Assembly (NCBI GenBank): GCA_011773465.1
Contig: WVXO01000064.1
Coordinates: 57,929-121,928 of the forward strand
DNA: 64,000 nt
Direction of reading: 5' to 3'
Source: Candidatus Aminicenantes bacterium
GTDB lineage: Bacteria > Acidobacteriota > Aminicenantia > Aminicenantales > Aminicenantaceae
Shown here: positions 30,248 through 62,988 of the stretch, in pieces
Numbering within the stretch: the first letter of the stretch is position 1
How the letters are laid out: each line of letters begins with the position of its first letter
Notes under the pieces: model-generated
The model's input: the letters and a program-made list of their open reading frames with translations, nothing else
What the model was told of the DNA's origin: nothing
The model's database searches: none
Made by a program: the position numbers and the translations under genes

Positions 30248-30303
30248 AATTACTTATATATTTTAAAATCGCGCCTTAATAACTATAACCAAAAAAAACA
30301 ATT

Positions 30304-32947: not shown

Positions 32948-33632
32948 TATTCTTCTTCACCCGTCCTGCAAGGACCGCCTATTCGACAATCCCTTTGATC
33001 CCGAGGCAGGGGAAATCGTCTTTGAGGTAGTTAGCACTATTTTAACTCCTTCCTACGTCCCGCTCTGCCTTACCTGGGACGGCAGCACCATATGGAATGT
33101 CGATGGCTACAATGAGACGCTCTACAGCCTCGACAAGCTTAGTGGAGCTCAAGTTAGAGCTTTAACATCTCCTCTTCCGGGAACAACAGGAATAGCCTAC
33201 GACGGCCAAGACCTCTGGGTATGCAGTGAATTGTCTGTTGATGTTTATAAAATAAATCTGTTAAACGGTGTGATCCAAAAAAGGCTCAATTTGCAAAGAG
33301 GCTCTTTTACAGCTATCGAGTATGGCTTGGATTCTTTATGGCTAGCTGATATTCAATCAAACATGATAATCAGGGTGGACCCAGAAACCGCTGAGATAAT
33401 CTCTTCATTTTCCAATCCGGGCGTTAGCGTAGATGGCTTAGCCTTTGACGGGAATGATTTTTGGATTTCTGACTCTTCAACCCTTACTATCTATCAAGTA
33501 ACCACTGAGGGGAGAGTCTTGAGGACTTTCCTTTCCCCTGGCCAATCTCCTCGAGGATTAGCTTTTGATGGGCATTATCTATGGAATGTGGATGGGGATC
33601 GAAAAATATATCAGTTGAGATTTCAAAATTGA
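32904..33632 (+). CDS. Lipoprotein made of 'DG..LW..D' beta-propeller-type repeats.
   Basis: Lipobox 'LLHPSC'. Four repeats, for example 'LTWDGSTIWNVDGYNETLYSLD' and 'LAFDGHYLWNVDGDRKIYQL'. The same repeat type occurs in CDS 48747-50372. Confidence 0.5.
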   Translation: MKIKIWHLPFLIAFSILLHPSCKDRLFDNPFDPEAGEIVFEVVSTILTPSYVPLCLTWDGSTIWNVDGYNETLYSLDKLSGAQVRALTSPLPGTTGIAYDGQDLWVCSELSVDVYKINLLNGVIQKRLNLQRGSFTAIEYGLDSLWLADIQSNMIIRVDPETAEIISSFSNPGVSVDGLAFDGNDFWISDSSTLTIYQVTTEGRVLRTFLSPGQSPRGLAFDGHYLWNVDGDRKIYQLRFQN

Positions 33633-35506
33633 ATTCTCTTAAAAATTTTACCCTAGTTTTTTTGCTTCTTTTCCTCATTTCTAGAGAAACTAATGCTTCA
33701 AATATGGGCTTGACGAATCAAATCCCTACAAAAGAAGATACATTGATTAGTTTAAAAGGCGAATACCTGGCCTACAGTTATGACTTTAATCAATTATACG
33801 GAGAAAATGTTGAATTCGAATTCTCTTCGTATAGTGTTTCCTGCCGTCAAATAAAGATAGATATTACTCCCAGAATATTTTATGCCTTTGGAGAAGTCAT
33901 TTTAAAAAAGGAGGATGAGAAACTAAATGGAGATGAATTCTTATTTGACTCTCAGGCAAAAAGAGGAACACTTATTAGCTACGGAGAAAAGATTGAAGTT
34001 AAAGAAATTGATAATGAGGGAAAGGAAATTTCTTTAAAAAAAAATGATGTTTTGACCGAGTTAACTCTTGCAAAAATTCAAAAATCATTGATTTATTTCG
34101 CTGGTCAGACGATCCATATAACAACCGATTTTGAAGTCTACGGATACAATGTGACTCTATTTGTAGAAGGCTTAGAATCCGTTAAGTTTAAGAAATTTAG
34201 ATTATCTGGCGGCATTGGCCAAAGAAGAAACGGAATTTCTTTAAACAGAGTATGGTATACAAAGTCCCAGGGCTTGATAGGGAGGGTGAGTTATTCCTAT
34301 GAAAAAGAGAAAAAAGTAAATAGTTTAACCCAGCTCAACTATGAAGAACATTCGTTCTTAAAAAATTATTCTGGGCTTAAGCGACAGGTAGACATTATTA
34401 GCTCAACAACCATAAATCTAAAAGATGATTTAAATCTTGGTCTAGCAGGAAACTATAATTCGAGTAATCTCTGGAATACACTCTTTTGGTTGAATAAAAA
34501 CTGGAGTAAAAAAATTAGTACGCAAGTAAATTTTTCATACAACAAGCCTATAAACCTTAAAGGAGAAGCCTGGTTTGGTCTTCAATCAAACATTGATACA
34601 GGAAAATTTGGAAATATTTCATTTTCAGGTAAATACGAGATTCAAAATCAGATGTTGGCCAATTTTTCATACGGAAATACTTTTTTGAAAAATATCAATT
34701 TCCTTTTATCCTCCACTTATTCCCAGATTAAGATTACTGAGAGCTCTGATTATTCTAAAATATTCTCGGGCGCAGTTAACCTCTCTTATAGTTCTCGAAT
34801 ATTTAATGTTTCCACGGATTATTTCTTGAATTATGACCTTTTTGGGGATCAACTCCTTTCACAGCCGCAACTCAGATTGGGGCTTAATCCATTTCAATTT
34901 TATGGGGGGCTAATATCTGCCAACATTTACAATATATTTATCTATAATAATTTGAAAAGAGGCGGAACCGAGGAAGACAGCTATAGTAATAATACAGTTC
35001 TCACTCTTTCAACCCAACCTGTTTTTCTCCATAAAAGCATGAGTCTAAATTATAGTTTTTCTCTCGAACAATTTGTCGAAAAAGAAGGAAGGAATTTCAC
35101 CTCTGGCGGATTTATCTTTAATCTAAACAAAAGTATTGTAAAGGGTATTTCTTTAGAAGGCCTCTACAGCCTTCAATCGAGAAGGAAAACAGAGGATTGG
35201 CTCATTGAGGGGACGACAAGTCAAGACTTGAGTGCTGTCTTAAAAGTTAATCCTTCAGAAAGATTAAATGGATGGATCTCTTTTTCTTACGACCCTAAAA
35301 ATAGTCAGTGGCGGCAGTCATTTGCTGATATTTCGGTAGGAATTATTAGGTACTGGAAACTTCATACTTTAATTCATTATGACTTTCTTTTAGAAAAGAT
35401 AAACAACGTCGATTTATATTTGATCCGTGATGCCGGAAGATTTCAGCTAAGGTTTATCTGGCGGAGTCTTTCCAAACAGTTTCTGATCGAATTGGTCCCA
35501 AGATGA
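33581..35506 (+). CDS. Large beta-rich hypothetical protein, possibly an outer-membrane protein. Start uncertain.
   Basis: Hydrophobic signal-like segment 'FTLVFLLLFLISRETNASN'. Asn/Ser/Tyr-rich alternating beta-strand character and a C-terminal aromatic residue near the end. The annotated start overlaps the upstream gene, so the true start is probably internal. Confidence 0.35.
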   Translation: MECGWGSKNISVEISKLNSLKNFTLVFLLLFLISRETNASNMGLTNQIPTKEDTLISLKGEYLAYSYDFNQLYGENVEFEFSSYSVSCRQIKIDITPRIFYAFGEVILKKEDEKLNGDEFLFDSQAKRGTLISYGEKIEVKEIDNEGKEISLKKNDVLTELTLAKIQKSLIYFAGQTIHITTDFEVYGYNVTLFVEGLESVKFKKFRLSGGIGQRRNGISLNRVWYTKSQGLIGRVSYSYEKEKKVNSLTQLNYEEHSFLKNYSGLKRQVDIISSTTINLKDDLNLGLAGNYNSSNLWNTLFWLNKNWSKKISTQVNFSYNKPINLKGEAWFGLQSNIDTGKFGNISFSGKYEIQNQMLANFSYGNTFLKNINFLLSSTYSQIKITESSDYSKIFSGAVNLSYSSRIFNVSTDYFLNYDLFGDQLLSQPQLRLGLNPFQFYGGLISANIYNIFIYNNLKRGGTEEDSYSNNTVLTLSTQPVFLHKSMSLNYSFSLEQFVEKEGRNFTSGGFIFNLNKSIVKGISLEGLYSLQSRRKTEDWLIEGTTSQDLSAVLKVNPSERLNGWISFSYDPKNSQWRQSFADISVGIIRYWKLHTLIHYDFLLEKINNVDLYLIRDAGRFQLRFIWRSLSKQFLIELVPR

Positions 35507-35964
35507 AAAAATATTTAGTTGTTTTTGTTCTTGTTATATCATTAGTATTTTTCTGGAATTGTATCTCGTTCAAGGCTGGTAACCTTTTACCATCTGAGAA
35601 CCAGGTTGAATCTATTCATTTATGTAAAAAAATAGATGACAGCAGTGACTTACTAAAGCCTTTAGATATTCAGTCCGAATTCACTCTTAAGGATGATCGT
35701 GTTATCTGTTTTATAAAATTAAAAGATATCTCCACAAAGATTGACTTAAAATGGAAATGGTATTCTCCTGATAAGAAGTTGGTAAGGGATACCGGAAATA
35801 TAATCGTAAGTAAGGGCGACAGATATCTTGCGGCCGCCACTGCTTATGACATGTACAAACTTAATCCTGAGAATATCGCTGAAGGGCAATGGACTGTAGT
35901 CATTTTTATGAATGATAAATTTATTGGAAAAAAATTGTTTCAAATTTTACCATCCTCGCGATAG
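35503..35964 (+). CDS. Hypothetical secreted or membrane protein.
   Basis: ATGA start/stop overlap with the upstream gene, giving operon coupling. Signal 'KYLVVFVLVISLVFFWNC'. Confidence 0.4.
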   Translation: MKKYLVVFVLVISLVFFWNCISFKAGNLLPSENQVESIHLCKKIDDSSDLLKPLDIQSEFTLKDDRVICFIKLKDISTKIDLKWKWYSPDKKLVRDTGNIIVSKGDRYLAAATAYDMYKLNPENIAEGQWTVVIFMNDKFIGKKLFQILPSSR

Positions 35965-50536: not shown

Positions 50537-51862
50537 ATGGATACCACTCGTAGGAATTTTCTTAAAAGCATTGGTTTGGGCATCGGGAGTTTAAGTGTTT
50601 TTGGTTTATCCGCAAAAAGCGCCCAAGCTGAACTCAAGAAAAAATTGGCCAAGATAAAAGATTCATCTCCAACCGATATCGCGCAAGATGAAGATTTCTG
50701 GTTCTATGTCCAGCAGGCATTTGATTGTGACCGAAGTATCATAAATCTTAACAACGGAGGTGTTCATCCAGCCCCAAAAATTGTCATGGATGCTGTTCAC
50801 AGATATCTTGATTTCGCTAACGGCGCTCCTGTTTATAACTCATGGCAAGTCCTCCGGCCCAGAAAAGAACTCATAAGAAAAAAACTGGCTGATACTTTCG
50901 GGTGCTCGCCTGAGGAGATTGCCATCACCAGGAATGTAACTGAAGCCATGCAGATAGGTCTCCTTGGGATAGATCTTAAGCAGGGTGATGAACTCTTGAC
51001 CACAACCCATGACTATCCTTCCATGAAATATGCCCTTTTGCAGAGAGAAAAAAGGGAAGGAGTCAAAGTCAAGATGTTTCCTTTTTGCTATCCGCCCAAA
51101 AACATAAATGAACTGGCTGATGCCTTTAAGAAAAATATCACTCCCAGGACCAAGCTCATTGAAGTCTGTCACATCACCAATTTGACGGGTCAGATCTTTC
51201 CGATTAGAGAAATCTGCCAGATGGCAAAAGAGCGAGGAATAGAAGTGGTGGTAGACGGAGCTCATGCTTTTGGACACTTCGAGTTCAAGCAGAAGGACCT
51301 CGACTGCGATATCTACGGTGCTAATCTCCACAAATGGATGATGGCTCCTATAGGCACAGGTTTTCTCTATGTAAAAAAAGAAAAAATCAAGAAGATATGG
51401 CCCCTTTTTCCTGCTCTTGATCCTCAAGGTGATGACATCAGAAAATTTGAACACATCGGAACTCATCCTGATTACCTGGAGCTTGCCGTAGGTGAGGCCT
51501 TGGCCTTCCATCATGGGATCGGTGGTAAGAGAAAAGAAGAGAGAATGCGCTATCTGAGGAATTACTGGGCAAGAGCTCTTGAAAAGCTTCCCGGCGTAAA
51601 AATTCTAACTTCTTATGACCCAGAACAGTCTTGTGGTATAGGAACTTTCACAGTAGAAAACATGGATCTGTCTAAGTTGGTACAGATTCTGTTCGAGAAA
51701 CATAAAATCTACATCATCACAGTCGGAGTGCCATCTTTTGAACTGGATGGTGAACAGATTACTGGGATACGCGTAACGCCAAGCATCTACACAACCCTTC
51801 GCGAATTGGATACCTTTATCGAAGCAGTTTCCTATTATGTAAAACACGGGCTTCCGCAATGA
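50537..51862 (+). CDS. Tat-exported class-V-fold PLP-dependent enzyme (isopenicillin-N-epimerase / cysteine-desulfurase-like).
   Basis: 'TTRRNFLKSIGLGIGSLSVFGLSAKSAQA' Tat signal. 'VVVDGAHAFGH' and 'NLHKWMMAPIGTGFLYV' with PLP lysine. Confidence 0.7.
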   Translation: MDTTRRNFLKSIGLGIGSLSVFGLSAKSAQAELKKKLAKIKDSSPTDIAQDEDFWFYVQQAFDCDRSIINLNNGGVHPAPKIVMDAVHRYLDFANGAPVYNSWQVLRPRKELIRKKLADTFGCSPEEIAITRNVTEAMQIGLLGIDLKQGDELLTTTHDYPSMKYALLQREKREGVKVKMFPFCYPPKNINELADAFKKNITPRTKLIEVCHITNLTGQIFPIREICQMAKERGIEVVVDGAHAFGHFEFKQKDLDCDIYGANLHKWMMAPIGTGFLYVKKEKIKKIWPLFPALDPQGDDIRKFEHIGTHPDYLELAVGEALAFHHGIGGKRKEERMRYLRNYWARALEKLPGVKILTSYDPEQSCGIGTFTVENMDLSKLVQILFEKHKIYIITVGVPSFELDGEQITGIRVTPSIYTTLRELDTFIEAVSYYVKHGLPQ

Positions 51863-52001
51863 AGAAATGAAATCTCTTCTCTCGAAGATATCTCGAATAG
51901 AGATACTTAGCAGAGGTAAAAACAATTACCCAAGACACGGATATTTAGCAAGGATAAAGATAATCACCTGAGATAAAGATATTTGAGGAGTATAGCACAA
52001 G

Positions 52002-53225
52002 ATGAGATGGAATTTGGAACATGATCTTGATTTGATAAGGAAGGAATTCCCGATTTTAGAACGCTGTGTTTATCTCATCAGCAATTCATTGGGAGCTGTT
52101 CCCGGGAGAGCGCTGGAGAATCTACAGAAATTTTATCAGATTTGGGCAGAGGAAGGTGTGAGCGCTTGGGAGAAGGAATGGTGGGGCCTTTCGCGAAAAG
52201 TAGGAAATCAGGTGGCTTATTTTCTGGGAGCAGGCGAAGATGAAGTGACAATGATACCTAATGCAACTCACTGTCATTGGGTCGCTCTTTCGACTAAATT
52301 TCTTGCCCAAGACGAGAGAAGAAAAAAGATTGTCATGACAGACCATGACTTTCCTTCCATGATATACGCGGTCTCAAGAATCTCAGACTTCAGGGGATGG
52401 AAGGTTGAGATAGTGAGAAGTAACGGCAATCCAGGAATTGACGTCGAAGATATTTTAAAACGAATAGATGAAGAAACCCTTTTTGTTGCCACCTCCCATG
52501 TTTATTATAAATCAGCTTATATCCAGAACATAAAACAGATTTCTTCCAGGGCACGAGAAGTAGGCGCTCTGACTCTTATCGACGGCTATCATGCACCGGG
52601 TATCATTCCCGTGGATGTCAAACAACTTGATGCAGACTTTTATATAGGAGGCTGTCTGAAGTGGCTGTGCGGAGGGCCGGGAAACGCTTTCCTTTATGTT
52701 AGACCAGAGCTTTCAGAGAATCTCGATCCTCAGTTAACTGGCTGGTTTGCTCACCGAGAACCTTTCCTTTTTGCTCAAGATATGGAGTATGCCAGGGGAG
52801 GACAAAAGTTCATGTCAGGTACTCCGCCGGTACCTTGCCTTTACACAGCAAGGGCTGGCCTGGAGATCCTGAAAAAAATTGGAATCCCTGAAGTACGGGA
52901 TAAGTCGCTCTCCCTTACTGAGTTGATCATAAAAAAAGCCAAAGAAAGAGGATATCGTATTTTCACACCTGAAGAGAATAACCTCAGGGGAGGATCAGTC
53001 TCAATCAGCTTGCCCCATGCTTTTCCCCTTAAGCAGGCTCTAGATAAGCGTAGAGTTAAGGTTGATTTCAGGAAAGGGGATGATAAAGAACCAGATGTTA
53101 TAAGAGTGGGCCCTCATTTTTACAATAACGATGAAGAAATCGATATCTTATTCAAAGAAATCGATGCTATTTATGCTTCAGGAGAATTTAAGAAATTTCC
53201 AACGGGAATAAAGCATGTGACCTGA
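52002..53225 (+). CDS. Kynureninase-like class-V-fold PLP-dependent enzyme.
   Basis: 'YLISNSLGAVPG' (compare kynureninase 'YLDGNSLGA.P') and 'GGCLKWLCGGPG' (compare 'SYKYLN.GPG'). Confidence 0.5.
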   Translation: MRWNLEHDLDLIRKEFPILERCVYLISNSLGAVPGRALENLQKFYQIWAEEGVSAWEKEWWGLSRKVGNQVAYFLGAGEDEVTMIPNATHCHWVALSTKFLAQDERRKKIVMTDHDFPSMIYAVSRISDFRGWKVEIVRSNGNPGIDVEDILKRIDEETLFVATSHVYYKSAYIQNIKQISSRAREVGALTLIDGYHAPGIIPVDVKQLDADFYIGGCLKWLCGGPGNAFLYVRPELSENLDPQLTGWFAHREPFLFAQDMEYARGGQKFMSGTPPVPCLYTARAGLEILKKIGIPEVRDKSLSLTELIIKKAKERGYRIFTPEENNLRGGSVSISLPHAFPLKQALDKRRVKVDFRKGDDKEPDVIRVGPHFYNNDEEIDILFKEIDAIYASGEFKKFPTGIKHVT

Positions 53226-53237
53226 TGCAAAATTAAG

Positions 53238-54272
53238 ATGGAAAAAATATCAAGGCGGAATTTTTTGGATGATTCATTGTTTTTAATGGGTTCTGCTCTT
53301 TTTCTCCCCTTTAGTTCACTCCGCTTGAAAGGGAAGGCTTTCTTGGATAACAGGGAAAATTCGAAAGAATACCCTTCTTACCTCGCACTTGATAAGAAAG
53401 GGACGCTTTCCGAGCGCGAAGAGAAATTGTATTCAATATATGAGAACTGCCATCTTTGTCCCCGAGATTGTCGCGTCAACAGGAAGGAAGGCCAAGTTGG
53501 AAGATGTCAGGCTACTTCCAGGGTAAAAATTTCAAGTGCTGCTCCCAGTTTTGATGAAGAACCCCTTTTGGTAGGGAAAAGCGGGTCTGGCGCCATATTC
53601 TTTTCCAACTGCGGGTTAAGGAGTGTTTACAGCCATGATTATAAGATTAGTATCGAAGGGGAGGGGATAGAAATATCAGACCAGAAATTGGCAGAAGAGA
53701 TGGTCAAACTCCAAAAAAAAGGATGTCACAATATCAATCTTGTTACTCCCACTCACTACGCACCCAACATCGTCAGCGCCATCCAGAAGGCTATCCCCCT
53801 GGGTTTCCGAATTCCTGTGGTCTATAATACACGCGGGTATGAGAAACAGGAAACTTTACAGCTTCTGGACGGCATAATCGATATCTACCTTACTGAGTGC
53901 AAATACATGGATTCTGAGCAGGCAGGTAAGTACTCGGCTGAGGCTTACAATTATCCTCACCATGCTAAGCTTGCCATTAAAGAGATGTACCGGCAGGTCG
54001 GGGATCTAAAATTAGATTCAAGAGGAATTGCTGTACGAGGATTGATTGTGAGGCATCTGATCCTCCCCAACAGGATAGCTGGAACAGAGAAATTTTTAAT
54101 ATTCATTGCCGAAAACCTTTCCAAGACTACCTACATTAATATTATGAATCAGTATCAACCTCGATACAAAGCCTCCGAATATCCTGAAATAGCCCGGAGC
54201 ATTAAGAGAAGCGAGTATAATGAAGCTCTAAAATGGGCCAAGAAATATGGCCTTACTCACCTGGCAAGATAG
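53238..54272 (+). CDS. PflX-type (COG1313) radical-SAM-fold protein with a degenerate CxxxCxxC motif and a Tat-like N-terminus.
   Basis: 'CHLCPRDCRVNRKEGQVGRC' matches the PflX N-terminal 'C.LCPR.C.V.R..G..G.C'. 'EEPLLVGKSGSGAIFFSNCGLRSVYSHD' aligns with 'EEP..SG..GSGTIFFSGCNLRCVFCQN', with two Cys replaced by Ser. N-terminus 'MEKISRRNFLDDSLFLMGSALFLP'. Confidence 0.55.
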   Translation: MEKISRRNFLDDSLFLMGSALFLPFSSLRLKGKAFLDNRENSKEYPSYLALDKKGTLSEREEKLYSIYENCHLCPRDCRVNRKEGQVGRCQATSRVKISSAAPSFDEEPLLVGKSGSGAIFFSNCGLRSVYSHDYKISIEGEGIEISDQKLAEEMVKLQKKGCHNINLVTPTHYAPNIVSAIQKAIPLGFRIPVVYNTRGYEKQETLQLLDGIIDIYLTECKYMDSEQAGKYSAEAYNYPHHAKLAIKEMYRQVGDLKLDSRGIAVRGLIVRHLILPNRIAGTEKFLIFIAENLSKTTYINIMNQYQPRYKASEYPEIARSIKRSEYNEALKWAKKYGLTHLAR

Positions 54273-54454: not shown

Positions 54455-56815
54455 ATGAAAATCCTTAGAATTTTTCTCCTTACTCTCATTTCATTTTGCC
54501 TACTGCTTCAAGGAATTCATGCTGAAATTGACTATCGATGGAAGGATGTCTACATAGGCGCTTTGGAGGCCAAGGCCTGGGGCGGCCTTGTCCTTGCTCC
54601 AAGTCAAGATAGTGTATTTGCTTTTCGAATCCAAATTGAAAAAGAAAATGAAGTTGCTGACGGAAATGACATTTTATATCTCATATCTGAAGTTGGCCCC
54701 CACTCTCCCGACTGTTCGTATGCAAGGATAAAACTGGATTTGAGCCTTCCTTTTAAAAGAGGGAATGAAACTCCGGTTCTTATAAAGCCTCCCTCAAGAT
54801 CAGATACATTAGTTTTGGAGTGGTCACGTCAGGATGAGCGAACAGTCATAGGAAGGATAACTTCTCCACCGAATGTAAAGATTAATCTTATTCATTATTT
54901 CCCCTGGAATTTTGAAGGAACATATCTCATTCTTCCTGATGGCCAGATAAAAGGAGAGAGTTCGGGTGTAATTAAATATCATTATTTGCTCTGGACAGAT
55001 ACAAAAGGAGATCTAATCACAGATTCTCTTGGTGATGAGTTGGCTGTTTCTTTCTTTATGGAAGATAATAGAGCTATTTATTTTGTGGCAGGAGTAGGGA
55101 AGGAAGAAAAGATTTTGAGCGCCCGCACGTATCGCTATAAAAACAAAGGAGCAATCGATTCTATGCTAGAGGAGGAAAGAAACAGATATAGAGGCAAAAG
55201 AGTAAGAATAGAGGGACTCCACGAAGGCACGGCACGGGCAATCACAAATAACCTATTCTGGATGGTGCTTTATCAACCTGGCAGCCATAGACTTTACACG
55301 CCAGGAGGGCGCGGATTGATCTTTTCCACTCCCGAAGGAAATCCTGGTCATTGGACGATATTCGAATGGGATTCATTCTTCAACGCCTTAGGGGCATCTG
55401 TGGAAAGTTCTAAGCATGCGAAAGACATTTTAAAGGCTGTCCTGGAAACTCAGTACGCTAATGGCAATATCCCTAACTGGAGAAGCCGGTTTGGAGGGAC
55501 ACCAGACAGGTCTCATCCTCCAATAGGTTCTTATATTGTCTTGAAATTATTCCAGAGGCTGGGAGATTTGGACTTTCTGAGATATGCTTATCCTTATCTT
55601 ATAAGGTGGCATTATTTCTGGAAGCAGGAGAAAGATAACGGACAACTTCGCCGGGATGGAAATAGAGATGGTCTTCTTGAATGGGGAACAGATACAGAAT
55701 TTTTGCCTCAGAGTGTTCCCCCCTGGAAAGAAAATATAGAAGGAAAAAAACGAGCTATGCGAGAGTCAGGACAGGATGATCTGCCTAATTGGGACGATGC
55801 TCCCTTCAGTCAGGAAACGGGAACGTTAATTATGAACTGCATCGATTTAAACAGCCTCTATACTCTCGACGCTTGGTGCCTGGCTGAAATTGCAAATATC
55901 CTTGATAAAAGAGACGATTATAACAACTTCTTCTCCGAATATGAGGCTATGAAGGAGCTTATAAACGAGCATCTTTGGGATGAGAGAGAAGGATTTTATT
56001 TTGATCGCTACTGGGATAGCAGATTCTCAACAAGAAAAGCAGCCTCGAATTTTTATCCTCTGCTTGCCGGTATTCCAGATAAAACGAGGGCCTTACGAAT
56101 GCTCAGACATCTCCTTGATCCTGAAGAGTTCTGGGGTGAATTCGTAATACCTACGATCTCCCGGGATGATCCCTCTTATAAAGATCAGCAGCGCTGGAGA
56201 GGGGCAATCTGGCCTCCTACCAATTATTTAATTTATCAAGGTTTAAAGGCTTATCATTTTGATGCTATAGCTTCTGAGCTAGCCAAAAAAAGCTCTGACT
56301 TGTTCCTCCGGACATGGGAAAATTTCCAGCTTTGTCCAGAAAATTTTGATTCAAGGACAGGAGAAGCAGGAGGGCAAAGATTCCAGAGTTGGGGTTCTCT
56401 TTTTGCTTTAATTGCTCTGGAAGAGTACTTAGATTTTACTCCCTGGGAGGGATTCAGGTTTGGAATGATTGATCCTGATGGAAGAGGCAAGCTTTCCAGA
56501 ATTTCCATCCAGGATCGTCACTATGATGTAGAGGTTTCACCCTCTGGGATTAGGCTTAAAGAAGAAGGTAAAGAGATTTTTAGGGCGAAGGGAAGCGCCG
56601 TTTTTCGCCAGTTTCTTTATTCTGAAAATGAAATCTCATTTGAAGTGATAACGTTAGAGAGAAGAGAGATAAGGATTCAATTTCTAACCAAAGGAAAATA
56701 TGAACTTTTGGTGGATGACGAGACAAAAAAGGTGTTTAAAGGAAAAGGAGTGAAGTTTAGAGTTCCTGAAGGCGAACATTCTGTTTTGATTCTTCTTTTA
56801 GAAAAACAGGGATAA
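54455..56815 (+). CDS. Secreted (alpha/alpha)6-barrel glycoside hydrolase, GH63-like (processing alpha-glucosidase / mannosylglycerate hydrolase family).
   Basis: Signal peptide. 'HWTIFEWDSFFNALG' resembles the GH63 'FLWDEGFH' motif. Trp and acidic residue-rich C-terminal barrel. Confidence 0.45.
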   Translation: MKILRIFLLTLISFCLLLQGIHAEIDYRWKDVYIGALEAKAWGGLVLAPSQDSVFAFRIQIEKENEVADGNDILYLISEVGPHSPDCSYARIKLDLSLPFKRGNETPVLIKPPSRSDTLVLEWSRQDERTVIGRITSPPNVKINLIHYFPWNFEGTYLILPDGQIKGESSGVIKYHYLLWTDTKGDLITDSLGDELAVSFFMEDNRAIYFVAGVGKEEKILSARTYRYKNKGAIDSMLEEERNRYRGKRVRIEGLHEGTARAITNNLFWMVLYQPGSHRLYTPGGRGLIFSTPEGNPGHWTIFEWDSFFNALGASVESSKHAKDILKAVLETQYANGNIPNWRSRFGGTPDRSHPPIGSYIVLKLFQRLGDLDFLRYAYPYLIRWHYFWKQEKDNGQLRRDGNRDGLLEWGTDTEFLPQSVPPWKENIEGKKRAMRESGQDDLPNWDDAPFSQETGTLIMNCIDLNSLYTLDAWCLAEIANILDKRDDYNNFFSEYEAMKELINEHLWDEREGFYFDRYWDSRFSTRKAASNFYPLLAGIPDKTRALRMLRHLLDPEEFWGEFVIPTISRDDPSYKDQQRWRGAIWPPTNYLIYQGLKAYHFDAIASELAKKSSDLFLRTWENFQLCPENFDSRTGEAGGQRFQSWGSLFALIALEEYLDFTPWEGFRFGMIDPDGRGKLSRISIQDRHYDVEVSPSGIRLKEEGKEIFRAKGSAVFRQFLYSENEISFEVITLERREIRIQFLTKGKYELLVDDETKKVFKGKGVKFRVPEGEHSVLILLLEKQG

Positions 56816-56837: not shown

Positions 56838-57683
56838 CTATTTTTTCCATTCTAAATAGGCCCTTTTCAGCGTGTCACCTCTGACTCCCTGTCTTAGAGC
56901 CTCCAGAGCTAAAACCTCTTCTGGAGGGATATTGCCAAGGTTTACGTTAATCCCCAGGCGAAGGATTAAAGCTTGCTGCTGATTTTTCAAGGGAGCCTCC
57001 CACATTAAACAGTTCGTGTCTTTGACTCCAGCAATGATGTGATCGACTTCTTCGTGCTTGATCTCTCCTTCTTTGTCAAATATTCCTACGGACTTCCCGG
57101 CCTCTCTGGCTTCGATAATAACCTTAAAAGCTCCATTTTCCATATCTTCTCCTATCAACTGGTGAACAAGAGAAATAGGAAGAACTTCTTTTGGATCTTT
57201 TTTTCCTACTTCAGTAATGACTTTGAAGCCCTTATCCAAAGATTTTTTAATGGCATCCTGTCTGGTTTCTTTATCTATCTCGATCGTTCCATCAGAGACT
57301 TCAATCGCAGAAAATCCAAGCGTCTTGGCTAATTCTAAATATTCGTCAAAGACATCTTGCCAGATAGCTATCTCCAGAAAGGTGCCTCCGGGCATGACTT
57401 CTATATCGGAAGAAGTGATCATCTCATTCTTTTTGTTCAAAAGGTCCTTATCATAGAAGGCCGAAGTCCCAAAGGTCAGTTTGATGATATCGATGTAGTC
57501 GCCCTCAACCTGAATCAAATCTTCGAGGCGATGAAGGCCCATTCCTTTATCAATAACCATGGTTACGCCCGTCTCTCTGGGTTTGGATGTTCTCCCTTCA
57601 ACGGGCATCTTGATAATATCTCCCCAAGCTTTGCTCATCTTTATCTCCTTTTTGGTTTTTTCAGGGTCAGACTTTGTCATCAT
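56838..57683 (-). CDS. comA: (2R)-phospho-3-sulfolactate synthase (ComA) family protein.
   Basis: 'KPRETGVTMVIDKG', 'GDYIDIIKLTFGTS', 'ITEVGKK', 'IIEAREAGKSVGIFDK' and 'EAPLKNQQQALI...VNLGNI...LRQGVRGDT' are collinear with archaeal ComA. Confidence 0.75.
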   Translation of the reverse strand: MMTKSDPEKTKKEIKMSKAWGDIIKMPVEGRTSKPRETGVTMVIDKGMGLHRLEDLIQVEGDYIDIIKLTFGTSAFYDKDLLNKKNEMITSSDIEVMPGGTFLEIAIWQDVFDEYLELAKTLGFSAIEVSDGTIEIDKETRQDAIKKSLDKGFKVITEVGKKDPKEVLPISLVHQLIGEDMENGAFKVIIEAREAGKSVGIFDKEGEIKHEEVDHIIAGVKDTNCLMWEAPLKNQQQALILRLGINVNLGNIPPEEVLALEALRQGVRGDTLKRAYLEWKK

Positions 57684-57739
57684 ATTGAGAATTGGTCTGT
57701 ATTTTATTAGTGAACATCACCTCATGATAAAGTCTGACC

Positions 57740-58711
57740 CTATTTCAAAAGATCTCCCCAGCAATCATTTGGATTTGAGAGAACAGAAGCAATTTTAGTG
57801 ATTGTCTTGTGATGGATAAGCTGGCTTACATATTTTAACCTTGCCAGAGCCATTTCTTTCTTGTCGAATCCCAAAACTGGTATTTTATCGTAGAGAATCA
57901 CGTTCTCGGCTATTTTCTGGGAAATATTGTCAAACAAGGCTTTTGCGGCTTTTCTCGTATCGTCTATGAGATTCAGAAGAAAACCTTTTCGCCCTTCTTC
58001 AATCCGAGGAAACAATATTACGACAGACTTGGGAGTTTTGAGTTCTTCAAGGTCAGTTTTGTAGGGGGAGAGATCAAGGGCGATCTTTTTCTGCCATTCT
58101 TCACCAGCTTCTTGAGTTTCAATTTTTGGTAAGAACTGAGGAAAATCATGCATCAAGGTACCTAATCGCACGTTATCAACGAGCGAACCCATAAACCATG
58201 ATACGAGATCATTTTCAATTCGGAAGTGGAGGGTTTCTGTTGAAAAGAGTTTGAGCCCTTTGGCCAGGCCACTAAGGAGATAGACGGTTTTTCCGCTTCC
58301 AGCTCCTCCTATAACAACAAACATTTGATCTTTCTTTTCTTGGTAGAGCGCGCAGGCGTGAAAATTATAAATCCCGTGCTTTCTCTCCAGTAAATAAAGA
58401 GCATATCTATAAAGGAATCCCTGGTTTCCCCACAAACTAAACCGTAAGTCCGAAGCTTCTCGAGTGAGCTTAAGAAAAGGCCCCTTGAATCTGGCTTTTC
58501 CTCTTGAAAATTCGAAAGAAGGCTCCTCCATAGATTCTTCAACCGAGATATATCCATCAAGGTCTGCTGAATATGGTATGCTCTCAACATCTTTAAAATC
58601 TGTAAGAAGCGACATGACTTCCGTCTGGAGTGGAAAGTGAAAAAGGAGCTCTTCTCTATTAGATTCGATCCCGATTTTTGCCTCTAGTATCTTTATCCCT
58701 GCCTTGTACAC
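57740..58711 (-). CDS. HprK-related P-loop kinase-like protein. GTG start.
   Basis: 'HACALYQEKKDQMFVVIGGAGSGKTVYLLSGLAKGLKLFSTETL' parallels the HPr kinase C-terminal domain 'HG.L....G.GvLi.G.SG.GKSE.ALEL...G..L.ADD'. Confidence 0.4.
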   Translation of the reverse strand: MYKAGIKILEAKIGIESNREELLFHFPLQTEVMSLLTDFKDVESIPYSADLDGYISVEESMEEPSFEFSRGKARFKGPFLKLTREASDLRFSLWGNQGFLYRYALYLLERKHGIYNFHACALYQEKKDQMFVVIGGAGSGKTVYLLSGLAKGLKLFSTETLHFRIENDLVSWFMGSLVDNVRLGTLMHDFPQFLPKIETQEAGEEWQKKIALDLSPYKTDLEELKTPKSVVILFPRIEEGRKGFLLNLIDDTRKAAKALFDNISQKIAENVILYDKIPVLGFDKKEMALARLKYVSQLIHHKTITKIASVLSNPNDCWGDLLK

Positions 58712-58922
58712 AACTTTTTCCTTGTTTATCTTAGATAACTACATGATACAAAATAAAATTTAACTCTACAATAATTTGATGCGACAGGAATGAAAATAGA
58801 GTGCTGGCTGTTGGGGAGAAAATAAGCAAAAGGGGAAAAGGAGGATTAGATCCTGCCCAGCCAGCCTAGCAGGGTCATTAAGTTTAGTCGAGAAAATAGA
58901 GAAAAAATGGAAAAAACAATTC

Positions 58923-59615
58923 TTATTTGATAGCGGTGTGAATGGCAGAAACACCCAGGAAAAGTGACCGATAAGTAACCCGAGCGAATCCCGCCTCACG
59001 TAGTATCGAGGAAAATTCCTCAGGAGGAAAAAAGCGCGGGATCGTGTAAGCAAGATATCTGTAAGCGGCTTTAGAGCCTGAGAGAAGAGACCCTAGTTGT
59101 TTTACAGTCAGTCTTATATAAAGATGAAAAAGCCTCTGGATAATTCTCATAGAAGGCTGACTAGTTTCAAGATTCACAAAATGTCCTTCAGGCTTGAGAA
59201 CACGATGAAACTCCTTTAGATGGGCAACCAGCTCTCGTTTGTTAGGATATATGTTTCGGGTGGCAAAAGAGATGGTCACCAGGTTGAATGTCATGTCAAC
59301 AAAAGGCAAACGCCCTGACTCAGCAAGAACAAAAGAGAAGTTTGGAATTTCTCTTTTCTCTAGGGCTCTATTTATCATCGGATGACAGAAATCGACAGAA
59401 ACAATCTTAACTTTTTCACCTGCCAGACGTGAAAGGTTAAGAGCCATTTCTCCAGTACCGCTGCACACATCCAGCCATAGAAAGCCTCTTGCTTTGACCG
59501 CTTCCCTAGCTGCTTTTCTCCGCCAAAGAATATCAAGCCCAAATGTCAGGATATGATTGACAAGCTCATAAGTTTTTGCAGCTTCAGAAAATATTTTTTG
59601 AATGCCTTTTCTCAT
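58923..59615 (-). CDS. ubiE: Class I SAM-dependent methyltransferase, UbiE/MenG/COQ5-like.
   Basis: 'IFSEAAKTYELVNHILTFGLDILWRR' and SAM motif I 'LDVCSGTGEMAL'. Confidence 0.7.
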   Translation of the reverse strand: MRKGIQKIFSEAAKTYELVNHILTFGLDILWRRKAAREAVKARGFLWLDVCSGTGEMALNLSRLAGEKVKIVSVDFCHPMINRALEKREIPNFSFVLAESGRLPFVDMTFNLVTISFATRNIYPNKRELVAHLKEFHRVLKPEGHFVNLETSQPSMRIIQRLFHLYIRLTVKQLGSLLSGSKAAYRYLAYTIPRFFPPEEFSSILREAGFARVTYRSLFLGVSAIHTAIK

Positions 59616-60019: not shown

Positions 60020-61651
60020 ATGAAAATCAAAAAAAATCGTTTACTAATTTGTTTGTTTACCGTCACTCTGCTTCTCGCAGCCACCTCCTCAGCCAGAGTT
60101 ACTCCTACCTATGCTATTGTTAATTGCAAGATTATTTCTGTTACTGGTTCACCCATCGAGAAAGGAACCATCATCATCAGGGATGGACTTATCGAATCCT
60201 TGGGACCCCAAGGAAAAATTTCAATTCCAGAAGATGCTGAGATAATCAAAGCTGAAGGCCAGTTCGCTTATCCAGGCTTGATTGATGCCCATACAAATTC
60301 CTTTCTCGAGCTTCCTAAAGAAGAGCCAAGAAGACCAGGAGCTGCGAGTACAGCGGCGGTTGACCCTCAGCAAAAGGAGAAAGCCCAGCATCCTGATTTA
60401 ATGGCTCTTAAGCTTTTAAAACCCAAAAAAACAGCTGTAGCAGACCTTCATAAAATCGGAATCACAACTGTCCTGGTTGCACCTGAAAGAGGAATCTATG
60501 CCGGCCAAAGCGTTCTTTTGAATGTTAATGGAGAAAATGCAGAACCGATGGTTATTAAAAGCCCTGTTGCTCTTCATGTGAATTTTACGACCGCACGCGG
60601 AACCTACCCTTCCAGTTTGATGGGAACAATGGCTTTTCTCAGACAGTCTTTTCTGGATACTGGACATTACTCCTCTCATAAGTCTCTATTTACAAAATCA
60701 CCTCGAGGCCTTAAACGACCTGAACATAATCCTTTTTTAGAAGCTCTTTCACCCTATGCAGTTAAAAAAAGTCCTATCTTTTTTAATTGTGCAAACTTGG
60801 AAGACATCAAGCGTGCCCTCGGACTTATCAAGGAATTCAAGCTCAACGGCTTTCTCACCGGAGCAAATGAAGCCTGGAGAGTGGCCGACCTACTCACCAA
60901 GCATGCTAAAGTTCCACTTCTTGTATCTCTCAATTTCAAGCCTCCAATGACAAGCATTTATGTCAATCAAGGTGAAGAACTAAAGAAAAAAGCAGAAGAA
61001 GAAATTTATCCTGCTAATGCTGCGAACCTCTATAAAAAGAGATTAACGTTTGCGTTTACCTCCCAGGGATTAAAAAAATCATCAGACATTCCAAAAAACG
61101 TCCAAAAAGCTATTAAGGCCGGCTTACCTAAGGAAGAAGCTCTCAAGGCCATGACCATTATCCCCGCCAAATTCTTGGGAGTGAGCAGCTTTCTGGGGAG
61201 CCTTGAACCGGGAAAAATCGCAAATATTATTCTTACTTCCGGTGAAATCTTCGATGAGAAGACGAAGGTGAAAAGAGTGTTTGTCGACGGTATATCTTTT
61301 GAAATTAAAGAGCCCCCTAAGGGAGAGCAGCCTGCAAAGGTGAATATCGCTGGAAAATGGAGCGTCACAGTCTCCAGTCCTATGGGGGAGATGGAATCGA
61401 CTATGGAACTCGAACAAGAAGGAAACGAAATCAGCGGAAGCATCTCATCGAGCATGGGTAAATGGGAAATAAGAGACGGAATTTTAAGCGGAAATGAACT
61501 CGCCTTAAGCATAACAGCTACAATAATGGGAGAAACGATGGATATGTCTTTCAGCGGGACAGCAGAAAGAGACTCTATAGAAGGAACAATTACTATCATG
61601 GAATGGAGTGCAGAGCTGAAAGCAACAAGAATCCCTGACAGGGAATATTAA
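60020..61651 (+). CDS. Secreted amidohydrolase-family protein (first of three tandem paralogs) with an extra C-terminal beta domain.
   Basis: Signal peptide. Metal motif 'AYPGLIDAHTNSF'. 'NCANLED' and overall TIM-barrel amidohydrolase pattern. Confidence 0.65.
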   Translation: MKIKKNRLLICLFTVTLLLAATSSARVTPTYAIVNCKIISVTGSPIEKGTIIIRDGLIESLGPQGKISIPEDAEIIKAEGQFAYPGLIDAHTNSFLELPKEEPRRPGAASTAAVDPQQKEKAQHPDLMALKLLKPKKTAVADLHKIGITTVLVAPERGIYAGQSVLLNVNGENAEPMVIKSPVALHVNFTTARGTYPSSLMGTMAFLRQSFLDTGHYSSHKSLFTKSPRGLKRPEHNPFLEALSPYAVKKSPIFFNCANLEDIKRALGLIKEFKLNGFLTGANEAWRVADLLTKHAKVPLLVSLNFKPPMTSIYVNQGEELKKKAEEEIYPANAANLYKKRLTFAFTSQGLKKSSDIPKNVQKAIKAGLPKEEALKAMTIIPAKFLGVSSFLGSLEPGKIANIILTSGEIFDEKTKVKRVFVDGISFEIKEPPKGEQPAKVNIAGKWSVTVSSPMGEMESTMELEQEGNEISGSISSSMGKWEIRDGILSGNELALSITATIMGETMDMSFSGTAERDSIEGTITIMEWSAELKATRIPDREY

Positions 61652-61662
61652 AGGAGAGAGCC

Positions 61663-62988
61663 ATGAAGAGAAATACCATCGGTTTTATCTTAGTTGTGAG
61701 TCTTGTGATTTTTTCAAGCTTTTCCTTCGGACAGGATCTCCTGATAAAGAACGGTACCATACTCACGGTTACCAAAGGGACAGTACCCAAAGGAGACATT
61801 CTCATAATCAAAGGCATAATAAAGCAGATCGGAGAGAACATCAAAGCACCTAGAGGAGTAAAAATCATAGATGCGTCAGGGAAATATGTTATCCCGGGTA
61901 TAATAGATTCACACACGCATATAGCCCTCACAGGAACAAATGAAAGCGCTGAAGCAATAACCGCTGAAGTCAAAATGCGGGATGTTCTCAATGCTGAAGA
62001 CCGTTCCATCTATACTGCGATATCAGGTGGAGTGACCATGGTCCATACCATGCATGGTAGCGGCAACCCGATAGGAGGCGAGAACATCGTCATCAAGACG
62101 AAATGGGGAAAGACCTCAGAAGAGATGATCGTTCACGATGCATACAGAACCTTAAAATTTGCCTTGGGTGAAAATCCCAAGAGATCTAATTCTCGTACCA
62201 TAGGAACGCCTCGCTATCCACAATCCCGCATGGGAGTGAATGCCATTATACGCCGTGAGTTTCTTAAGGCAAAGAACTATATGGAACAGTGGGACCGTTA
62301 CTTAAAAGCGAAAAAATCCAAAAAGTCTGCAAAGAATTTGATCGCACCTCGCAAAGACCTAAGGATGGAGCAGTTGGCAGATATGCTTCGTGGAAAAATG
62401 ATAGCCCGTTGCCACAGTTATAGAGCTGATGAAACCCTGGAATTCATTAAACTTTCTAAAGAATTTGGATTTAAGATAGCCTGTTTTGAGCATGTATCTG
62501 AAGCTTTCAAAATAGCCAAGGAACTCGCTGAGGAAAAAATCGGCATCTCCGTCTTTCTTGATAACTGGGCCTATAAGGTCGAAGCTTCTGAAGGGATTGC
62601 CTACAGTGCTTCCTACTGCACAAAAAAAGGAGTCCTTGTTTCCCTAAATTCTGACAGCGGGGAGAGAATCCGGCGGTTATTCAATGATGCAGCTAAAGCC
62701 ATGAAATACGGACGGCTCTCTGAGGAGGAAGCCCTGAAGCTCGTCACCATCAACCCAGCCATCCAGCTTGGTGTGGAAAAGATTGCAGGAAGCCTGGAAG
62801 TCGGCAAGCATGGAGATATCGCCATCTTTAATGAACATCCTTTGATCGCCTATACCCACTGTGAAAAGACAATAATCGAGGGAGAAGTCTATTTTGATCG
62901 AACTCAGTATCTCAAAGAGAGAGAAGAGATGGAGAAAAGAAAGAAAGAAGAAGAGAAAAAGAAAGAGAAAAAGGGAGGGAAAAAATGA
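61663..62988 (+). CDS. Secreted amidohydrolase-family protein (second paralog) with a Lys/Glu-rich C-terminal tail.
   Basis: Signal peptide. 'VIPGIIDSHTHIALTG' (HxH) and 'GDIAIFNEHPL'. The tail is 'KRKKEEEKKKEKKGGKK'. Confidence 0.7.
   Translation: MKRNTIGFILVVSLVIFSSFSFGQDLLIKNGTILTVTKGTVPKGDILIIKGIIKQIGENIKAPRGVKIIDASGKYVIPGIIDSHTHIALTGTNESAEAITAEVKMRDVLNAEDRSIYTAISGGVTMVHTMHGSGNPIGGENIVIKTKWGKTSEEMIVHDAYRTLKFALGENPKRSNSRTIGTPRYPQSRMGVNAIIRREFLKAKNYMEQWDRYLKAKKSKKSAKNLIAPRKDLRMEQLADMLRGKMIARCHSYRADETLEFIKLSKEFGFKIACFEHVSEAFKIAKELAEEKIGISVFLDNWAYKVEASEGIAYSASYCTKKGVLVSLNSDSGERIRRLFNDAAKAMKYGRLSEEEALKLVTINPAIQLGVEKIAGSLEVGKHGDIAIFNEHPLIAYTHCEKTIIEGEVYFDRTQYLKEREEMEKRKKEEEKKKEKKGGKK

Follow-up and report, generated by a model that had tools for sequence, protein, structure and literature searches.

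The window, meaning the whole stretch of 64,000 nucleotides of Candidatus Aminicenantes DNA that was analysed, holds three open reading frames of interest on its minus strand according to its ORF listing, transcribed in the order UbiE > X > ComA. The first encodes a UbiE/MenG-type methyltransferase (58923-59615), the second a protein of 323 residues with a GTG start, here called X (57740-58711), and the last, which is the final gene of the unit, a member of the phosphosulfolactate synthase family, ComA, of 281 residues (56838-57683). UbiE and X are separated by 211 nt, and a spacer of 56 nt (57684-57739) lies between the X stop and the ComA start, with no terminator-like site in it. The positions, the strand and the ComA and X motifs quoted in a preliminary description of this locus are all reproduced. 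Its 56-bp distance and common strand for X and ComA are likewise correct, whereas its placing of X downstream of ComA has to be reversed, since X lies upstream in the order of transcription.

Judged from its sequence, ComA is a bona fide member of the ComA family. All of the ComA motifs are present (EGDYIDIIKLTFGTS, EVGKK, EAREAGKSVGIFDK, EAPLKNQQQ, VNLGNI and LRQGVRGDT), and the protein matches PF02679 in Pfam (1.8e-90, 303 bits against a cut-off of 25.2) as well as the NCBIfam equivalog TIGR03849 (arch_ComA), whose cut-off of 280 bits is passed with 343 bits. The phmmer alignment with M. jannaschii ComA (1QWG, 2.5e-60) runs over the full length, residues 37-273, and brings EVGKK, E(A/G)RE(A/S)GK, EAPxKxQQ and LRxGxRGDT of the two proteins into register, in agreement with the strong, near full-length match reported previously. 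Because homologous ComA proteins comprise 266-269 residues, compared with 281 here, the internal Met16 may be the true start. In Aminicenantes loci, ComA is always followed by convergent genes.

Fold and conserved residues of protein X

Protein X contains the HPr-kinase-like Walker A sequence VVIGGAGSGKT that had been recognised in it, with the P-loop GGAGSGKT at residues 135-142 (58286-58309, minus strand). Neither Pfam nor NCBIfam contains a family that matches X at E<=0.01, and only a sub-threshold P-loop match is returned; specifically, there is no match to an Hpr_kinase domain in Pfam or NCBIfam and none to PEPCK_ATP in Pfam, and a phmmer search against the PDB gives nothing useful. All 522 homologues of X are annotated as "hypothetical", and the family is rare, with 164 representatives at 50% identity among 1.84 billion proteins. 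Members of odd length reveal no informative fusions. X is treated here as the founding member of an unannotated family of putative P-loop kinases.

The AF2 model of X, which is confident (pLDDT 92.9, pTM 0.91), resembles PEP carboxykinase and HPr kinase. In Foldseek searches, ATP-PEPCK structures rank best (6at3_B, E 1.1e-6; also 2pc9 and 1ii2), with TMq of 0.44-0.50, TMt of about 0.3 and rmsd of 8-9 Å over 320-420 aligned columns that span both X domains. HprK/P structures come next (1knx, 1ko7, 3tqf and 1jb1, E 4e-4 to 5e-3), aligned over about 200 columns of the core domain only, with TMq of about 0.24. At the level of the predicted model, a TM score of about 0.45 together with an rmsd of 8-9 Å indicates that X and PEPCK belong to the same superfamily but to different families; compared with PckA (~530-540 residues), X is 40% shorter.

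The alignment of profiles by hhalign places X residues 111-147 on residues 225-260 of E. coli PckA (probability 85%, E 6.5e-6, only 36 columns), and X H118, K141 and T142 thereby fall on PckA His232, a metal ligand, Lys254 and Thr255. His118 (codon 58358-58360, minus strand) is invariant in the family (alignment A2), G135, G140 and K141 are invariant family-wide (alignments A1 and A2), and the H118/K141/T142 set as a whole is invariant or nearly so. His118 is presumably the counterpart of the conserved histidine that precedes the P-loop of HprK/P. Against the PDB, the X profile gives matches at the P-loop level only, among them HprK 3tqf (E 0.0025 over the P-loop region). HprK/P and the HprK-related RiPP kinases share the fold of the core P-loop domain with X, which also displays the HprK/P-type pattern His...GxxGxGK(T/S)...acidic. 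In contrast to HprK/P, X has S-T-E or T-D in place of the DD motif and carries additional N- and C-terminal domains, and its genomic context is neither HPr/PTS nor RiPP, the neighbourhoods of about 160 loci containing no ptsH or other PTS genes. Collectively, the model and the profile alignment place X, as had been proposed, in the PEPCK/HprK P-loop kinase fold, and no resolution into an unrelated fold was found.

Linkage of X and ComA and the surrounding genes

ComA comes directly after X on the same strand in 74/74 Aminicenantes species loci with room and in 66/70 divergent metagenome loci, the latter belonging to a branch of 35-73% identity and covering GC contents of 0.29-0.73; with these counts, the adjacency is far beyond chance. 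Genomes were scanned with alignment A1 and metagenomes with A4, A2 and A3 being too divergent, and the metagenome genes come from our own ORF calling with a GC3 filter against antisense ORFs in high-GC contigs. Gaps between the two genes in relatives start from an overlap, with a median value of 13 nt, and the X stop overlaps the ComA start in L006, L102-L114 and L174. Beyond the pair, the flanks are unrelated and fall into at least 8 different architectures. The carriers are all uncultured MAGs or metagenome contigs; neither plasmids nor defence systems gave a match. Restriction of the cluster to a single genome, which would have spoken against a functional unit, is thus not observed, as the pair recurs across distant lineages.

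Three X-related proteins of distant branches have no ComA partner: P0172 has a dGTPase-like gene after it, P0199 lies between RtcA and a metallophosphoesterase, and the gene of P0190 converges on that of an Ldh_2 protein beside IleRS, an arrangement that may be coincidence. The link to ComA therefore defines one subfamily and not the whole X superfamily.

The methyltransferase does not share this conservation. Its identity is clear from PF01209 (3.2e-50) and TIGR01934 (192.8 bits against a cut-off of 158). Among 71 Aminicenantes loci with room, it lies less than 400 bp from X in 45, stands 1-3.5 kb away in 8 and is absent in 18, and the 81 loci outside Aminicenantes contain one stray weak match (L124). 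UbiE is a lineage-specific neighbour outside the conserved X–ComA module; of the three-gene arrangement put forward previously, only the X–ComA part holds.

Further genes recur around the pair; some of the loci counted in what follows are near-duplicates (L145/L146, L163/L165 and L129/L130). Pyruvate kinase (PK, in the order IclR>PK>X>ComA) or PPDK is found directly 5' of X in 6 loci, with PK in the same operon in L100 and L101. TctCBA (TctABC) or DASS uptake systems occur near the pair in 13 loci, TauE, YeiH/PSE, PHO4 or a Mo/FeS-NrfD complex in 22, Ldh_2, D-2-hydroxyacid dehydrogenase or a LarA-type racemase (LarAH5) in 13, and GntR-FCD or IclR regulators in 9. At least one category (uptake, dehydrogenase/racemase, sulfite/sulfate handling, regulator) is represented in 40 of the 50 multi-gene metagenome loci. 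The Mo/FeS-NrfD complex has no Tat signal and is read as facing the cytoplasm, and the best NCBIfam match of the Ldh_2 neighbour is L-sulfolactate dehydrogenase (ComC-like). SuyAB does not appear among the recurrent annotated neighbours. These sulfonate-cluster categories adjoin the pair in the metagenome loci, whereas none adjoins it in the window, where no transporter, exporter or PK/PPDK lies beside the pair. This Aminicenantes genome has the core pair only; an MFS transporter is added in some relatives, and it stands 5' of the pair in many Aminicenantes.

A putative desulfonation route

The preliminary description had suggested that a kinase and ComA could together run the ComA reaction in reverse and thereby desulfonate sulfolactate. 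This reading best explains the conserved neighbours, and it is favoured because PK/PPDK, uptake systems, sulfite exporters or an oxidoreductase, ComC-like and racemase genes and regulators of catabolic type are conserved around the pair. X and ComA would accordingly constitute an obligate two-gene C3-sulfonate module, a sulfolactate kinase followed by ComA in reverse, a reading whose chances of being right or wrong are judged to be about equal. As a candidate (2R)-3-sulfolactate 2-kinase, X would use ATP to phosphorylate the 2-hydroxyl of (2R)-3-sulfolactate, giving (2R)-2-phospho-3-sulfolactate. ComA, working opposite to its coenzyme-M role, would then act as an enolase-like beta-eliminase that splits phosphosulfolactate (PSL) into PEP and sulfite, and pyruvate kinase or PPDK would convert PEP to pyruvate with recovery of the ATP. 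The sulfite would leave through TauE or YeiH/PSE, or be oxidised by the cytoplasm-facing Mo/FeS/NrfD complex. The racemase and dehydrogenase neighbours would deliver the R-enantiomer; known sulfolactate degraders need S-to-R processing ahead of desulfonation (PMC13436972). Sulfolactate as the substrate of X and the direction of the flux are both presumed from this context, and the route is putative. For the Aminicenantes genome itself the same direction is extrapolated, and it is the least constrained step, because no transporter, exporter or PK/PPDK adjoins the pair in the window.

The proposed net reaction, sulfolactate to pyruvate and sulfite, would be ATP-neutral and identical to that of SuyAB. 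The clusters of SuyAB in Paracoccus, Chromohalobacter and Roseovarius resemble the X–ComA loci in having an importer (the TTT system SlcHFG), a sulfite exporter or dehydrogenase, a dedicated regulator, and ComC with a second dehydrogenase serving as racemase (PMC5812351, PMC13436972); SlcHFG is a known sulfolactate importer (PMC5812351). In the X–ComA loci, the slot of SuyAB is held by X and ComA (plus PK/PPDK), and in contrast to SuyAB, C–S cleavage would come after ATP-dependent phosphorylation, with PEP and not pyruvate as the product. The phosphosulfolactate intermediate would be common to ComA/ComB/ComC of class I methanogens, YitD/YitC of B. subtilis and XcbB of Xanthobacter. The partner of ComA is a predicted P-loop kinase here, whereas the other systems use the ComB phosphatase or the XcbC eliminase, and, unlike in the coenzyme-M systems, the genes around the pair are of a catabolic type and the flux is proposed to run backwards. 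The chemical logic would be identical to that of glycerate 2-kinase and enolase (glycerate to 2-phosphoglycerate to PEP): the 2-hydroxyl of a 3-substituted lactate is phosphorylated and the 3-substituent is beta-eliminated to give PEP. The leaving group would be sulfite instead of water, and the enzymes of the two routes come from unrelated protein families.

The breakdown of sulfoquinovose, which counts among the largest global fluxes of organosulfur, yields mainly sulfolactate and DHPS. The final C–S cleavage is at present credited to few enzymes, and a review of July 2026 lists only the SuyAB, Xsc, CuyA and glycyl-radical routes. The literature search found neither a description of a kinase/phosphosulfolactate desulfonation route nor a demonstration of the ComA reaction running in reverse. 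The X–ComA pair may represent a previously unrecognised and widespread route of C–S cleavage, using sulfolactate kinase and ComA as phosphosulfolactate sulfite-lyase, a proposal that stands evenly poised between acceptance and rejection. If it is true, a kinase with reversed ComA would be a fifth mechanism of C–S cleavage, ATP-neutral and working without oxygen, radical chemistry or an Fe–S enzyme, and a rare "hypothetical" protein family would gain a function. Furthermore, the annotation of ComA genes in bacterial metagenomes, which at present points to the synthesis of coenzyme M or sulfolactate, would have to be revised. The sulfonate cycle would then include abundant anaerobes that are uncultured, Aminicenantes among them; together with further uncultured bacteria of sediment and soil, Aminicenantes would be secondary degraders of sulfoquinovose-derived sulfonates.

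Alternative explanations and intergenic regions

The same enzymes might operate in the opposite direction, with ComA fixing sulfite onto PEP and X replacing ComB in the dephosphorylation of phosphosulfolactate to sulfolactate, either by passing the phosphate to ADP or by HprK/P-like phosphorolysis; the sulfolactate would then serve sulfite detoxification with export, or be a biosynthetic precursor. By sequence, ComA is an archaeal-type synthase, and X occupies the partner slot because a ComB-like gene is not among the recurrent neighbours; however, neither ComDE, Xcb nor other downstream biosynthetic genes are seen around the pair. PPDK could provide the PEP, but PK directly 5' in the same operon (L100 and L101) would compete for it. 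In an operon against sulfite stress, it would be plausible to find ComA beside an exporter or oxidase of sulfite, and TauE, YeiH and the MFS transporter could export sulfolactate instead of sulfite; nevertheless, detoxification needs no racemase or dehydrogenase partners, and both the high-affinity TctCBA/DASS uptake and the GntR-FCD/IclR regulators are typically associated with the catabolism of organic acids. A rough estimate from textbook free energies puts the sum of the two steps (PEP + sulfite + ADP = sulfolactate + ATP) near equilibrium, although a simple phosphoester is, taken alone, a thermodynamically unfavourable phosphoryl donor to ADP. Taking this into account, synthesis of sulfolactate by the pair is rather unlikely.

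It is improbable that X is a regulatory protein kinase/phosphorylase, similar to HprK/P or to the PPDK regulatory protein, that switches ComA or a neighbouring PEP enzyme. Regulatory kinases may be encoded beside their targets, as in ppsR-ppsA and aceK, and HprK/P structures are significant fold matches to X, with HprK also among the weak sequence matches (E 0.0025). However, PEPCK, a small-molecule kinase, gives the highest-ranking and most extended structural match, which covers both domains, and the Pfam Hpr_kinase match is absent. The near-universal, tight adjacency to ComA, with frequent stop/start overlap, suits consecutive enzymes better.

A different option is raised by the neighbours that score as C4-acid genes: X could be a PEP carboxykinase of reduced size, converting oxaloacetate to PEP for ComA. 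The racemase and fumarase-like genes pass the NCBIfam cut-offs as malate racemase and fumarate hydratase, and because of these scores part of the X–ComA context could reflect C4-dicarboxylate metabolism; together with a malate-type dehydrogenase and dicarboxylate transporters (both DASS and Tct carry dicarboxylates) they would funnel to oxaloacetate. PEPCKs also head the fold matches, with the metal-binding His and the P-loop aligned, but X has 323 residues against about 540, most of the PEPCK N-terminal domain is missing, no Pfam PEPCK match is obtained, and the hhalign match spans 36 columns only. Moreover, PK/PPDK and sulfite exporters or oxidases in the same operons would hardly make sense if PEP and sulfite were both consumed, and the fate of phosphosulfolactate is left unexplained, which makes this option quite improbable.

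That UbiE, X and ComA are tailoring enzymes which phosphorylate and methylate a RiPP or small secondary metabolite, as also suggested in the preliminary description, is extremely improbable: HprK-related kinases occur in RiPP clusters and UbiE adjoins X in the window, but X misses the HprK-related RiPP kinase models that NCBIfam presumably holds, the spacer offers neither a precursor ORF nor an Rfam element, UbiE is dispensable (displaced in 8/71 and absent in 18/71 Aminicenantes loci), and in other lineages the genes around the pair belong to primary metabolism.

The earlier finding that the UbiE–X spacer encodes no precursor peptide is repeated with the ORF listing. No Rfam family is matched in the spacers, and promoter-like sites at the locus are not above chance. 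An insert of 100 nt in the spacer occurs only once in the window and has no significant fold (z = -1.76). The ~85 nt directly 5' of X (58712-58796, minus strand) contain an AAGGA ribosome-binding site. In alignment A5, which comprises five close relatives, this segment is nearly invariant and the distal spacer has large indels, a pattern that, weak as it is at such divergence, possibly marks the pair's own control region.

Gene arrangement in the window

The three open reading frames reported in the preliminary description are confirmed, all on the minus strand and transcribed in the order UbiE > X > ComA. The first (58923-59615) encodes a UbiE/MenG-type methyltransferase (PF01209, 3.2e-50; TIGR01934, 192.8 bits vs a cut-off of 158). 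It is followed, after a spacer of 211 nt, by an ORF of 323 aa with a GTG start, here termed X (57740-58711), which shows 100% identity to the NCBI MAG protein GTN73_09600, and, after a further 56 nt, by ComA (56838-57683; PF02679, 1.8e-90). The strong, near-full-length ComA match described earlier is upheld: the protein exceeds the 280-bit cut-off of the NCBIfam equivalog TIGR03849 (arch_ComA) with 343 bits, aligns over the full length with the solved M. jannaschii enzyme 1QWG (2.5e-60) and keeps the previously quoted motifs intact. By sequence, it belongs to the ComA family. Phosphosulfolactate synthase structures recently deposited in the PDB include 9cm1, 24fo and 24gz; the 60 chains of 9cm1 suggest, tentatively, that it forms a cage or is a designed particle, and may bear on ComA quaternary structure.

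A scan of the spacers reveals no terminator-like sites between the three genes and no match to Rfam families, and shuffled sequence gives promoter-like matches at least as often. The ~85 nt just 5' of X are conserved among close relatives and the remaining spacer carries large indels; the conserved stretch is compatible, on weak evidence, with a separate control region for the X-ComA pair. Within the same spacer, a ~100-nt segment (58797-58900, minus strand) is present in the window and in two relatives (L016 and L017) and absent in two others (L012 and L015). It contains the 8-bp inverted repeat GCTGGCTG...CAGCCAGC, is single-copy in the window, and its predicted fold is not significant (z = -1.76).

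Fold and conserved residues of X

X matches no model in Pfam or NCBIfam, no PADLOC model beyond a P-loop and no PDB sequence. A word-index search returned 522 homologues, all annotated as "hypothetical" apart from one obvious EcfA2 misannotation, and only 164 cluster representatives emerged from an exhaustive profile search of 1.84 billion. The family is well conserved and real, but rare.

The AlphaFold2 model, built from 31 homologues, is confident (pLDDT 92.9, pTM 0.91). When it is compared with the PDB by Foldseek, ATP- and GTP-dependent PEP carboxykinases rank first (6at3_B, E 1.1e-6), aligning over 320-420 columns at TM values, normalised to X, of 0.44-0.50; next come the HPr kinase/phosphorylases (E 4e-4 to 5e-3, TMq ~0.24), matching in the core domain only. 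The hhalign comparison of the X profile with the E. coli PckA sequence superimposes X 111-147 on PckA 225-260 (probability 85%, E 6.5e-6), placing H118 on His232 and the P-loop residues K141/T142 on Lys254/Thr255. In the alignment, H118, G135, G140 and K141 are invariant across the whole family, and R90, S157-T158-E159, H162, E238, K266 and R291 are further conserved inside the ComA-linked branch. The Foldseek ranking, the residue placement and the invariant positions together indicate that X is a new family of the PEPCK/HprK P-loop kinase superfamily and retains the catalytic core. The kinase fold anticipated in the preliminary description is thereby supported, and an unrelated fold was not seen. 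At the family level X matches neither HprK/P, nor PEPCK, nor RiPP kinases, with which it has the fold and catalytic core in common.

Two distant X-like genes were also encountered. On metagenome contigs (L010:544-2946 and L011), the subfamily protein P0199, with ~21% identity to X, lies between RNA 3'-phosphate cyclase (RTC) and metallophosphoesterase genes. Starts and stops overlap, and the group resembles a cassette for RNA-end healing or repair that includes a kinase of the PEPCK/HprK fold. The second, P0190 (L009:7742-9494; 22% identity, high-GC contig), occurs without ComA and is convergent with an Ldh_2 (ComC-family) gene that abuts an isoleucyl-tRNA synthetase gene; this neighbourhood is possibly coincidental.

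Linkage and neighbours of the X-ComA pair

A survey of 80 species-representative Aminicenantes genomes gave 74 loci with enough sequence after X to hold ComA, and in every one of them ComA is the next gene downstream, in the same orientation (median gap 13 nt, range -25 to +267). Taken alone, this adjacency is weak evidence, because the lineage is broadly syntenic. A metagenome scan seeded with a more distant branch, which shares only 35-40% identity with the X of the window, gave 80 loci (GC 0.29 to 0.73), whose named carriers are Deltaproteobacteria and Armatimonadetes MAGs. Here ComA immediately follows X in 66 of the 70 loci with room, some metagenome loci being near-duplicates, and the stop codon of X and the start codon of ComA frequently overlap. 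Since the adjacency persists in this branch amid wholly different flanks (at least 8 architectures), X>ComA is a conserved functional module; chance adjacency is excluded.

UbiE lies outside this module. In Aminicenantes, it is found within 400 bp of X in 45 loci, is displaced by 1-3.5 kb in 8 and is absent in 18; the inserted genes that displace it include an opposite-strand hydrolase (in the locus L001) and a sulfatase-TPR protein. In the metagenome loci outside Aminicenantes, UbiE shows no association with the pair. The inserted sulfatase-TPR protein (641 aa, same strand; L026:7840-9765, also L029 and L032, from three Aminicenantes genomes) represents another sulfur-ester enzyme adjoining the pair. 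About a third of the Aminicenantes loci have an MFS transporter upstream in the same orientation, as MFS>[UbiE>]X>ComA.

Neighbours in other lineages were counted on the same strand within four genes of the pair, following GC3-filtered gene calling (our own ORF calls), clustering and annotation of the recurrent neighbours. Sulfite/sulfate handling is represented in 22 loci, by the TauE/SafE sulfite exporter, the YeiH/PF03601 "putative sulfate exporter", a PHO4 transporter, or an FeS-NrfD fusion protein with a molybdopterin subunit after it. No Tat signal is present at the N-terminus of this subunit, and the complex therefore faces the cytoplasm, as does SoeABC, which it resembles in architecture. 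Enzymes of 2-hydroxyacids occur in 13 loci (Ldh_2, a PGDH-like D-2-hydroxyacid dehydrogenase, a LarAH5-type nickel racemase), the best NCBIfam match of the Ldh_2 neighbour being L-sulfolactate dehydrogenase, below cut-off. Uptake systems are likewise seen in 13 loci, with TctC/B/A directly after ComA or DASS (Na_sulph_symp/CitMHS) directly before X. GntR-FCD or IclR regulators and a two-subunit class-I fumarase-like hydro-lyase are each found in 9. PEP-to-pyruvate enzymes occur in 6: pyruvate phosphate dikinase (PPDK) directly upstream of X in 4 and pyruvate kinase (PK), as IclR>PK>X>ComA, in 2. Of the loci comprising at least four genes (50), 40 contain one or more of these classes. Two further loci show the orders X-ComA-2-hydroxyacid dehydrogenase-PF03601-GntR (L174) and X-ComA-IS-LarA (L173). 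The pair in the window has none of these neighbours; it is flanked by UbiE on one side and by a convergent GH63-like glycosidase on the other, and the annotated part of the window contains no other sulfite-handling genes.

Candidate route of desulfonation

ComA has been linked to three metabolites only, PEP, sulfite and phosphosulfolactate (PMC9457059). Given this restricted set and the tight junction of its gene with ComA, the kinase X most simply makes or uses phosphosulfolactate. The favoured and most likely scheme comprises three steps, the first two of which were already the main idea of the preliminary description. X would convert (2R)-sulfolactate and ATP into phosphosulfolactate; ComA, running in reverse through an enolase-like beta-elimination, would release PEP and sulfite; PEP and ADP would then yield pyruvate and ATP. 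The net reaction would be that of SuyAB, ATP-neutral and without an oxygen-sensitive Fe-S lyase, and chemically the route would mirror the glycerate 2-kinase and enolase steps. By an estimate from textbook values, not a computation, the X and ComA steps would lie near equilibrium, pulled by PK and sulfite removal.

This route is favoured because the accessory genes match the SuyAB set and because PK or PPDK beside X fits PEP as product. The SuyAB clusters of known sulfolactate degraders contain the same accessory genes as the surroundings of X-ComA, and their TTT importer is SlcHFG (PMC5812351). Sulfoglycolysis yields the S-form and the lyases take the R-form, hence an S-to-R inversion is needed (PMC13436972); ComC-type and other dehydrogenases for this inversion are common to both settings, as are sulfite export or oxidation and a dedicated regulator. 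The sequence data establish the gene identities, the fold and conserved catalytic residues of X, the linkage and the neighbour repertoire; that X acts on sulfolactate, that flux runs towards PEP and sulfite, and that the conclusion extends to this Aminicenantes genome is inferred.

The same chemistry could also proceed forward, with X substituting for ComB either to detoxify sulfite or to make sulfolactate. This reading is plausible at a rather low probability; the presence of PK, uptake systems, catabolic regulators and racemases speaks against it. A regulatory role, in which X would be a protein kinase of the HprK or PDRP kind acting on ComA, is disfavoured and improbable, given the full-length PEPCK-like architecture of X and the tight, often overlapping adjacency of the two genes. 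About as improbable is a mini-PEPCK feeding ComA with PEP from C4 acids: neighbours called as malate racemase and fumarase offer some support, but this reading would not account for the exporters, for PK or for what becomes of the product. Tailoring of a RiPP or small metabolite by UbiE, X and ComA, the earlier alternative, finds no support and is very improbable.

For a route of kinase plus reversed ComA, no description was found in full-text literature, nor any mention of a "sulfolactate kinase", most subscription-journal papers lying outside this coverage. For C3-sulfonate C-S cleavage, a July 2026 review of sulfoquinovose cycling gives only SuyAB, Xsc, CuyA and glycyl-radical enzymes. X-ComA is proposed as an organosulfonate desulfonation cluster, combining a new kinase family with a known enzyme run backwards.

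Elsewhere in the window, a Ser/Thr protein kinase with three PEGA domains and a PEGA + Kre9/KNH-like protein (28208-32265, plus strand) are followed by three ORFs without a Pfam family (32904-35964). A 344-aa protein with a Cys-rich motif (53238-54272, plus strand) has no Pfam match in the scan, and its homologues carry a precomputed Radical_SAM match; two class-V aminotransferase/kynureninase-like genes lie upstream (50537-53225), in a block syntenic across Aminicenantes. The glycosidase convergent with ComA (54455-56815, plus strand) is a 786-aa MGH1-like/GH63/trehalase-type glycoside hydrolase with a signal-peptide-like N-terminus. Its position beside ComA is kept in most Aminicenantes, and in some relatives a GT2/mannosylglycerate-synthase-like gene (cluster c25) is inserted between the two. 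Divergent from UbiE, a run of paralogous amidohydrolase genes (60020-62988 and onward, plus strand; 543 aa, 441 aa and more), the 543-aa protein having a long C-terminal extension past its amidohydrolase domain, is conserved across Aminicenantes.
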